Positions 60,545 to 62,362 of a DNA stretch of 64,000 nucleotides are shown in pieces. Under the pieces are notes generated by a model, which ran no database searches, was not told the DNA's origin, and worked only from the letters and a program-made list of their open reading frames with translations. Origin of the DNA: Escherichia phage A6-6; the sequence record PQ510734.1. The stretch is one strand, 5' to 3'. A program made the translations under genes and the position numbers. Position 1 is the first letter of the stretch, and the number at the start of each line of letters is the position of its first letter.

Positions 60545-62362
60545 ATGATTAAGAATGAAATTAAAATTCTGAGCGATATTGAACATATCAAAAAGCGTAG
60601 CGGCATGTATATTGGCTCTTCAGCTAATGAAATGCATGAGCGCTTTCTGTTTGGTAAATGGGAAAGTGTTCAGTATGTACCTGGTCTTGTTAAGCTTATT
60701 GATGAAATTATCGATAACTCAGTAGATGAAGGTATTCGTACTAAGTTTAAATTCGCAAATAAAATTAATGTTACTATTAAAAACAATCAAGTAACAGTTG
60801 AAGATAACGGTCGTGGTATTCCGCAGGCAATGGTTAAAACACCTACCGGTGAAGAAATTCCTGGTCCTGTTGCTGCATGGACTATTCCAAAAGCAGGTGG
60901 TAACTTCGGTGATGACAAAGAACGCGTCACTGGCGGTATGAATGGTGTTGGTTCTAGTTTGACAAACATTTTTTCTGTGATGTTTGTCGGTGAAACTGGT
61001 GATGGTCAAAATAATATTGTAGTTCGTTGTTCAAATGGCATGGAAAATAAATCATGGGAAACTATTCCTGGAAAATGGAAAGGAACTCGTGTTACTTTCA
61101 TTCCTGATTTTATGTCATTTGAAACTAATGAGCTATCTCAAGTTTATCTTGACATTACACTGGATCGTCTCCAGACGCTTGCTGTAGTTTATCCTGATAT
61201 TCAATTTACCTTTAATGGTAAAAAGGTTCAGGGTAATTTTAAGAAATATGCACGACAGTATGATGAACATGCTATTGTTCAAGAACAAGAAAATTGTTCT
61301 ATTGCGGTTGGTCGTTCACCGGATGGATTTCGTCAATTAACTTATGTGAATAACATTCACACTAAGAATGGTGGCCATCACATTGACTGTGTTATGGATG
61401 ATATTTGTGAAGACCTTATTCCACAAATCAAACGTAAGTTCAAAATTGATGTAACTAAAGCACGTGTCAAAGAATGTTTGACTATCGTTATGTTTGTTCG
61501 TGATATGAAAAACATGCGATTTGATTCTCAAACTAAAGAGCGTTTGACTTCTCCATTTGGCGAAATTCGTAGTCATATTCAGCTTGATGCTAAAAAGATT
61601 TCACGCGCTATTCTAAATAATGAAGCAATTCTAATGCCGATTATCGAAGCTGCTTTGGCTCGTAAATTGGCGGCAGAAAAAGCAGCAGAAACTAAAGCAG
61701 CTAAAAAGGCTTCTAAAGCTAAGGTTCATAAACATATCAAAGCGAATCTTTGTGGTAAAGATGCTGATACTACTCTTTTCTTGACTGAGGGTGATTCGGC
61801 TATCGGATATCTTATTGATGTTCGTGATAAAGAACTTCACGGTGGTTATCCATTGCGTGGTAAAGTTCTTAATAGCTGGGGTATGTCTTATGCAGATATG
61901 CTTAAAAACAAAGAACTATTTGATATTTGCGCAATCACTGGATTAGTTCTCGGTGAAAAAGCCGAAAACTTGAATTATCATAATATCGCTATTATGACTG
62001 ATGCTGACCATGATGGTCTAGGAAGCATTTATCCTTCTCTGCTCGGATTTTTTAGTAATTGGCCAGAACTGTTTGAACAAGGAAGAATTCGCTTTGTCAA
62101 AACTCCTGTAATCATCGCTCAGGTCGGTAAAAAACAAGAATGGTTTTATACAGTTGCTGAATATGAGAGTGCCAAAGATGCTCTACCTAAACATAGCATC
62201 CGTTATATTAAGGGACTTGGCTCTTTGGAAAAATCTGAATATCGCGAGATGATTCAAAACCCAGTATATGATGTTGTTAAACTTCCTGAGAATTGGAAAG
62301 AGCTTTTTGAAATGCTCATGGGAGATAATGCTGACCTTCGTAAAGAATGGATGAGCCAATAG
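60545..62362 (+). CDS. 39: DNA topoisomerase II large subunit, uninterrupted T2-type gene 39
   Basis: 605 aa from ATG 60545; GHKL ATPase motifs (IDNSVDEG, DNGRGIP, GMNGVGSS) and toprim motifs (LTEGDSA, MTDADHDG) in one ORF. Confidence 0.95.
   Translation: MIKNEIKILSDIEHIKKRSGMYIGSSANEMHERFLFGKWESVQYVPGLVKLIDEIIDNSVDEGIRTKFKFANKINVTIKNNQVTVEDNGRGIPQAMVKTPTGEEIPGPVAAWTIPKAGGNFGDDKERVTGGMNGVGSSLTNIFSVMFVGETGDGQNNIVVRCSNGMENKSWETIPGKWKGTRVTFIPDFMSFETNELSQVYLDITLDRLQTLAVVYPDIQFTFNGKKVQGNFKKYARQYDEHAIVQEQENCSIAVGRSPDGFRQLTYVNNIHTKNGGHHIDCVMDDICEDLIPQIKRKFKIDVTKARVKECLTIVMFVRDMKNMRFDSQTKERLTSPFGEIRSHIQLDAKKISRAILNNEAILMPIIEAALARKLAAEKAAETKAAKKASKAKVHKHIKANLCGKDADTTLFLTEGDSAIGYLIDVRDKELHGGYPLRGKVLNSWGMSYADMLKNKELFDICAITGLVLGEKAENLNYHNIAIMTDADHDGLGSIYPSLLGFFSNWPELFEQGRIRFVKTPVIIAQVGKKQEWFYTVAEYESAKDALPKHSIRYIKGLGSLEKSEYREMIQNPVYDVVKLPENWKELFEMLMGDNADLRKEWMSQ

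Follow-up and report, generated by a model that had tools for sequence, protein, structure and literature searches.

The 64,000-nt stretch of DNA analyzed here (hereafter the window) carries, at 60545-62362 on the plus strand, an ordinary one-piece T-even topoisomerase II large-subunit gene. We are highly confident in the joint reading that this is a Tequatrovirus gene 39 encoding a complete, one-polypeptide GyrB-like subunit, and that it is an empty-site allele without any trace of the MobA cassette. This reading is based on the integrity of the ORF, its domains, its near-identity to the T6 and T2 genes, the breakpoints relative to T4, the lack of cassette remnants, and the frequency of the arrangement among relatives. 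The gene product would combine the GHKL ATPase, transducer, and Toprim regions of a phage ATP-dependent type IIA topoisomerase in one polypeptide, and by analogy with T6 and T2 it may pair with gp52 in a two-subunit heterotetramer whose role would be DNA relaxation while the phage replicates. Nothing that we found contradicts this reading. We infer both this pairing and the sensitivity of the allele to MobA. On the T4 map, gene 52 lies beyond rIIA/rIIB, outside the window, which ends inside rIIA.

In the six-frame ORF list, gene 39 is a single open frame of 605 codons from an ATG, with zero internal stops and its stop codon at 62360-62362. An in-frame GTG at 60542 is an alternative start that would give 606 codons (60542-62362, plus strand). 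Because the T4, T2, and T6 proteins share the N-terminal sequence MIKNEIKIL, the ATG at 60545 is the likely start. Pfam searches match HATPase_c at aa 47-149 (E 1.9e-9), DNA_gyraseB (PF00204) at aa 250-384 (E 1.5e-13), and TOPRIM_C (PF16898) at aa 519-604. The N-box, G1 (DxGxG), and G2 motifs by which a GHKL (Bergerat-fold) ATPase is recognized are all present, and the Toprim catalytic Glu and DxD metal-binding motif are contiguous in one polypeptide. The preliminary description, made from the sequence alone, had placed the GHKL ATPase and Toprim regions in a single 605-aa ORF, and the lack of internal stops, the Pfam matches, and the motifs bear this out. The features of the gene are as follows.

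60534-60537, plus strand: Shine-Dalgarno-like GAGG, 7 nt 5' of the ATG at 60545, read off the sequence, with a putative function.
60545-62362, plus strand: gene 39 in unsplit form, encoding the large (GyrB-like) subunit of type IIA topoisomerase with 605 aa, assigned from the ORF, Pfam, and near-identity to T6/T2.
60704-60958, plus strand: GHKL ATPase motifs EIIDNSVDE (aa 54-62), EDNGRGIP (aa 86-93), and GGMNGVGSS (aa 130-138), within the HATPase_c match.
61523-61546, plus strand: QTK loop of the transducer domain, DSQTKERL (aa 327-334), within the DNA_gyraseB match.
61781-61801, plus strand: Toprim catalytic glutamate motif LTEGDSA (aa 413-419), from motif position.
61994-62017, plus strand: Toprim DxD motif MTDADHDG (aa 484-491), from motif position, with the Gly491 codon GGT at 62015-62017.

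The protein is colinear with the 605-aa T6 gp39 (PDB 8ylu, 8ylu_C; YP_010067157.1), aligns full-length to its structure, and is identical to it at 604 of 605 residues, the sole difference being Q526 here and H in T6. T2 gp39 differs at 2 residues. The nucleotide alignments to T6 and T2 gene 39 are colinear and gap-free across all 1818 nt; the 48 nt differences from T6 are nearly all synonymous and lead to the single amino acid change, while T2, which has the same unsplit 1818-nt gene, shows 69 nt differences (96.2% nucleotide identity). That nearly all substitutions relative to T6/T2 are synonymous indicates strong purifying selection on gene 39. RB14 also has an unsplit 1818-nt gene, annotated '60plus39' / 'gp60plus39'. 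The domain order of GHKL, transducer, and Toprim is shared with GyrB, ParE, and the N-terminal half of eukaryotic Topo II, and the gene 39 product matches human Topo II-alpha and -beta (E ~1e-59) and ParE (E ~1e-48), whereas GyrB has ~800 aa compared to 605 aa here. Unlike gyrase, the phage enzyme has no GyrA-box/CTD pinwheel, and it relaxes DNA without supercoiling it (PMC11461880). The purified T6 enzyme (gp39 and gp52) has been tested for relaxation and its structure determined by cryo-EM and crystallography, and ATP-dependent DNA relaxation has been demonstrated for T6 gp39 with gp52 (PMC11461880). Since the protein shares 604 of 605 residues with the assayed T6 gp39, its function follows by near-identity, and it would be expected to show the same ATP-dependent relaxation activity.

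The T4 gene is arranged differently. In T4 record MT984581, the order is gene 39 (516 aa), mobA (HNH homing endonuclease), gene 60, rIIA.1, and rIIA, and gene 60 is annotated in two pieces separated by a misc_feature 'non-coding translational bypass region', in line with the earlier statement that the T4 enzyme is split into genes 39 and 60 with a 50-nt bypass. In blastn alignments, ORF nt 1-1418 align with nt 1-1418 of T4 gene 39 (97.0% identity) and ORF nt 1483-1818 with the 3' portion of gene 60 (97.9% identity), and between those blocks just 35 nt align to T4 (ORF nt 1438-1472, window 61982-62016; 83%). The breakpoints fall at 61962/62027 in the window and 3900/2793 in the T4 record, with a T4 segment of 1106 nt (2794-3899) between them. 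The alignments to T4 genes 39 and 60 and to T2 gene 39 that had been proposed as a check thus show an ORF that is colinear with T2 and interrupted relative to T4 by the 1106-nt insert. T4 gp39 is not colinear with this ORF, departing from the common sequence after ...LVLGEKA (residue 473), adding 43 unrelated residues, and ending at residue 516; given this divergence, the reading of gene 39 as unsplit stands. The segment between the breakpoints is the following.

61963-62026, plus strand: empty homing site for MobA, 64 nt long, corresponding to ORF nt 1419-1482 and aa 474-494; it takes in the Toprim DxD motif and is delimited by the blastn breakpoints relative to T4.

In T4, the 1106-nt cassette stands in place of these 64 nt. 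It contains the 43-aa gp39 tail, mobA (261 codons), the N-terminal tail of gp60, and the 50-nt gap that is bypassed, and in it ~30 gene-60-specific N-terminal codons precede a diverged version of the exon stretch that was replaced (83%, 35 nt). T4 gp60 begins with ~30 unrelated residues, and the common sequence resumes at ...NYANVAIMTDADHDG, after which come GGA-TAG and the remainder of the 50-nt gap, and then LGSIYPS. At the codon level, T4 reads GAT GGA TAG, the rest of the 50-nt gap to the landing codon GGA, and then TTA GGT TCT, whereas the window reads GAT GGT CTA GGA AGC (Leu-Gly-Ser after GGT), in frame and without insert, stop, or hairpin. The Gly491 codon GGT of the window corresponds to the T4 take-off codon GGA, and the T4 gap would fall between 62017 and 62018.

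The mobA gene encodes a free-standing HNH endonuclease that targets gene 39, and the gene split results from its insertion (PMC2988022); the enzyme has two subunits in T2 and T6, and the T4 split is attributed to the mobA insertion (PMC2988022, PMC11461880). The published MobA element is 1097-1106 nt long, inserts at Topo2L nt 1399-1419 in RB14 numbering, and deletes 55-75 nt (64 nt in HY01), which are mostly replaced by a diverged homologous region; it adds a C-terminal extension of ~44 aa to ORF1 and gives ORF2 an N-terminal extension and the bypass cassette (bioRxiv 10.1101/2022.08.31.505936). The element size, the 64-nt deletion, and the insertion point that we observed between the window and T4 agree with this element. 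In T4 and a minority of relatives, the 1106 nt of the MobA cassette take the place of 64 nt of Toprim coding sequence, which splits the gene into 39 and 60 and brings in the 50-nt bypass gap. The gene 39 allele of the window would never have received the cassette, or at least it shows no trace of it.

The searches for cassette remnants agree with this. With the 1106-nt T4 insert as query (blastn, word size 7), the 64-kb window showed no cassette traces apart from the 35-nt stretch of exon homology. In tblastn searches of the window, T4 MobA gave zero matches at E<=0.01, and the 43-aa T4 gp39 tail and 33-aa gp60 N-tail gave chance matches alone (E>2). The 50-nt coding gap (take-off GGA, adjacent stop, hairpin, and landing GGA) was not found in gene 39, and the cassette-derived gp39 C-terminal and gp60 N-terminal extensions are absent, the length being equal to that in T2 and T6. 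A mobA-like HNH or bypass remnant at the junction, for which a check had been suggested, was rejected, as the blastn and tblastn searches of the window returned only the 35-nt exon stretch at 61982-62016 and chance matches.

The preprint states, citing Bonocora et al. 2011, that the T2 gene is nicked by MobA within the same region and that the bypass insert shields cassette-bearing DNA from self-cleavage (bioRxiv 10.1101/2022.08.31.505936). The 64-nt segment of the window shows 2 differences from T2 (ORF nt 1419 and 1443), both of them synonymous. Because the site is nearly identical to that of T2, the reported nicking substrate, this allele is probably a MobA substrate as well, and it is predicted to be a MobA-sensitive empty site. 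In a mixed infection with T4, it would probably be open to MobA nicking and cassette homing, and in crosses with T4 the gene 39 locus would likely act as a recipient of the cassette.

The uninterrupted gene is also the common state among relatives. The gene 39 query matched 531 phage records, 505 of which cover at least 80% of the gene, whereas the T4-specific insert is covered to at least 80% in 41 records; the insert-bearing records include T4 stocks, RB55, RB59, HY01, HY03, G50, and JEP6. More than 460 independent phage records share the gap-free 1818-nt arrangement. In an evenly spaced listing, among the matches listed, H41-H90 all align as one gap-free 1818-nt piece, and two-piece alignments spanning 2860 nt occur only in H91-H94 of H41-H94. 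The gene is thus uninterrupted in ~9/10 of the sequenced relatives, with T4 as the exception, and because the majority of relatives are uninterrupted, the unsplit gene 39 is presumably the ancestral state. The phage had also been put forward as an uninterrupted reference configuration; it is indeed uninterrupted, but hundreds of records and the solved T6 structures already supply such a reference. Unsplit gene 39 is the standard T-even state and is annotated in hundreds of genomes, and the value of this example is mainly as context: the split-and-bypass gene of T4 is a rare exception that is due to a mobile element absent here. Since the MobA/bypass cassette is missing from this phage, the locus should be annotated by pipelines as a single 605-aa product, with no recoding event. 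The primary papers on this subject are Huang et al. 1988, Repoila et al. 1994, and Bonocora et al. 2011. The unsplit gene 39 and the main interpretation given here are already described in the literature (PMC2988022, PMC11461880, bioRxiv 10.1101/2022.08.31.505936).

Two further loci had been used in the preliminary description to place the phage, an intron-less nrdD and a 280-aa glycosyltransferase at the beta-gt locus, and both were found as described. The nrdD gene (21996-23813) is one 605-aa ORF that covers positions 1-562 of 562 of the NRDD profile. Compared to T4, it lacks 1035 nt with the intron and I-TevII (breakpoint ambiguity 2 nt), and scanning all 64 kb at the Rfam gathering threshold gave 0 matches to group I introns or to any other structured RNA. 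The ORF at 41429-42277, between gene 42 and uvsX, encodes 280-282 aa of the TET-associated glycosyltransferase family and the gene that it matches in T2, RB3, and others (474 records) carries the annotation beta-glucosyl-HMC-alpha-glucosyltransferase. It is the T2/T6 beta-glucosyl-HMC-alpha-glucosyltransferase (beta-alpha-gt) and not T4 beta-gt, and T4 beta-gt and segA are absent from the window.

From these traits, the phage had been placed with T2/T6 rather than T4. This holds loosely for gene content, which is closest to that of T6, but it does not hold for the shared gene 39 sequence, which is equally close to T4. The aligned fraction of window 16000-64000 is 95% for T6, 85% for T4, and 83% for T2, while the identities of gene 39 over 1754 shared nt are 97.38% for T6, 97.15% for T4, and 96.18% for T2. 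Because the shared gene 39 sequence is as near to T4 as to T6, the absence of the cassette points to a mobile-element polymorphism and not to lineage. JEP6 and GRNsp7 carry the mobA cassette and beta-alpha-gt together, indicating that the two markers are unlinked, and unsplit gene 39 and beta-alpha-gt are each the majority state in the genus. As judged from these sequence comparisons, unsplit gene 39, intron-less nrdD, and beta-alpha-gt are independent insertion polymorphisms on a mosaic background.

The same allele could in principle have arisen if a cassette once present had been excised precisely or lost when an empty allele recombined into the locus ('hit and run'), in which case the fused state would be secondary. 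Such a history has been reported for an Aeromonas phage clade (bioRxiv 10.1101/2022.08.31.505936), T-even genomes are highly mosaic, with the window approximately equidistant from T4, T6, and T2 at gene 39, and replacement by recombination with an empty allele would be traceless. However, the reported hit-and-run alleles retain residues derived from the C-terminal and N-terminal extensions (CTE and NTE; bioRxiv 10.1101/2022.08.31.505936), whereas the product here has exactly the 605 aa of T2/T6, its residues 474-494 are identical to those of T6, and neither the T4 gp39 tail nor the gp60 N-tail has a cassette-derived match in the window (tblastn). The 64-nt site is also of the T2/T6 type and not of the T4 homR type, showing 83% identity to T4 compared to 97% in the flanks. 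The T2/T6 length and the T6-identical residues across the site make secondary loss unlikely, and we give this history very little weight.

Two other readings are less probable still. That the ORF is continuous only through an error of assembly or consensus calling, or is a pseudogene that stays open by chance, has nothing found in its favor and hardly deserves credence in view of the independent records with the same gap-free 1818 nt, the nearly complete restriction of substitutions to synonymous ones, and the intactness of every catalytic motif. It is similarly far-fetched that the window is simply phage T2 or T6. The protein is separated from T6 gp39 by only 1 aa and from T2 gp39 by 2 aa, and the gene content is nearest to that of T6, including the missing dam; against this, gene 39 differs at 48 nt from T6 and 69 nt from T2, no phage in the collection matches window 39001-64000 better than ~96-97%, segH and ORF054 of T6 are missing here, and T6 in turn is without some inserts of the window. 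The window is thus neither T2 nor T6.

Homing endonucleases were also searched for in the whole window. T4 MobA, MobB, MobC, MobD, SegA, SegB, SegF, and I-TevII, T6 SegH, ORF054, and T2_056 (11 enzymes) have no homologue at E<=0.01 in tblastn searches of the 64-kb window, and no HNH or GIY-YIG domain was found in ten window-specific ORFs with Pfam and PHROGs. On these searches, the presence of other homing endonucleases in the window was rejected. The T4 elements missing in 1-64000 are the mobA cassette, segF, segA, mobB, mobC, the nrdD intron with I-TevII, and mobD; the window is likewise without T6 segH and without the T6ORF054/T2_056 insert that lies between genes 46 and 46.1. The homing sites compared were gene 39, nrdD, and the positions of T4 segF, segA, mobB, mobC, and mobD. 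It is possible, although we lean slightly against it, that the window represents a Tequatrovirus that is both absent from the searched collection and free of the tested endonucleases, so that all compared homing sites would be empty. If this is true, the phage would be a fully naive recipient for studies of cassette and intron homing, including MobA/bypass acquisition. The coordinates of the empty site (61963-62026) and the lack of a homologue of the 11 tested endonucleases in this 64-kb early region are mildly useful extras.

The flanking genes of gene 39 are common to T4 and the window. The small ORF and rIIA that had been said to follow gene 39 were both identified there, as listed below.

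60215-60475, plus strand: gene 39.1 homologue, 86 aa from ATG, with a lipoprotein-like LAGC motif (PHROG 902, E 1.1e-37), colinear with T4 gp39.1.
62363-62391, plus strand: promoter-like site TTTACT-17-TATAAT with TG, a consensus match only, just after the gene 39 stop and upstream of rIIA.1.
62417-62620, plus strand: rIIA.1, 67 aa (Pfam T4_RIIA1 PF24210, E 1.4e-33, full length), positioned as in T4, T2, and T6.
62631-64000, plus strand: 5' part of rIIA, 456 open codons, running past the window end, annotated as rIIA in all matching records.

The 5' part of rIIA shows a weak HATPase_c_3 match (23.4 bits compared to the curated cut-off of 25; Pfam). In a promoter/terminator scan, promoter-like sites are not enriched around gene 39 (6 sites compared to 9.8 expected from shuffles), and the site at 62363-62391 is the only well-placed one. 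T6 also has 39.1, rIIA.1, and rIIA as neighbors of gene 39, while T2 has a different ORF complement upstream of the gene. A 123-aa ORF between 39.2 and 39.1 (59839-60210; PHROG 622, weak similarity to goF-like proteins) is common to the window and T6, where it lies at 4600-4971, and is absent from T4. On the minus strand, a 186-aa ORF (60046-60606) overlapping 39.1 and the gene 39 start is probably not a genuine gene; T2 record PV648363 carries a comparable 'hypothetical protein' annotation on the minus strand.

Several other differences from T4, T2, and T6 were observed in the window. The dam gene is absent at 47729-47956, between gene 61 (46700-47728) and gene 56 (47904-48515), where T4 has 899 nt and T2 1417 nt that the window lacks; T6 is likewise without dam there, and T4 Dam has no match in the window (tblastn). 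Gene 56 (dCTPase) is a diverged allele adjoining the site where T4 carries segF, and its segment 47957-48478 shows 77.8% nucleotide identity to T4 compared to ~95% for neighboring genes. At the T4 mobD position, 962 nt of other sequence (10533-11494) correspond to two ORFs.

10514-11035: y05I-like putative transcription factor (PF24449, PF24448).
11038-11499: 153-aa ORF (PHROG 944 'membrane protein').

Four short inserts (24597-24920, 26796-27055, 36479-36697, and 39666-39904) are found neither in T4 nor in T6. The first three are missing from T2 as well, and at the fourth T2 carries 245 nt of different sequence. Each insert is associated with a small ORF.

24614-24925: small ORF, 103 aa.
26781-27050: small ORF, 89 aa.
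36438-36701: small ORF, 87 aa, between regA and gene 43.
39658-39894: small ORF, 78 aa, with a hydrophobic N-terminus.

Extra genes are also present around motB, at 58204-58947 and 57075-57518.

58213-58632: second MotB-like ORF (PF17613), absent from T4 and T6.
58728-59009: ORF near motB (PHROG 3720), absent from T4 and T6.
57089-57631: ORF with a MotB-like C-terminus, resembling a T6 ORF annotated 'C-terminus similar to motB'.

At 1909-2675, 767 nt stand in place of the T4 ipII/ipIII internal-protein locus (1433 nt), and the ORF at 2203-2676 encodes a different internal virion protein (PHROG 3155, DUF7412).
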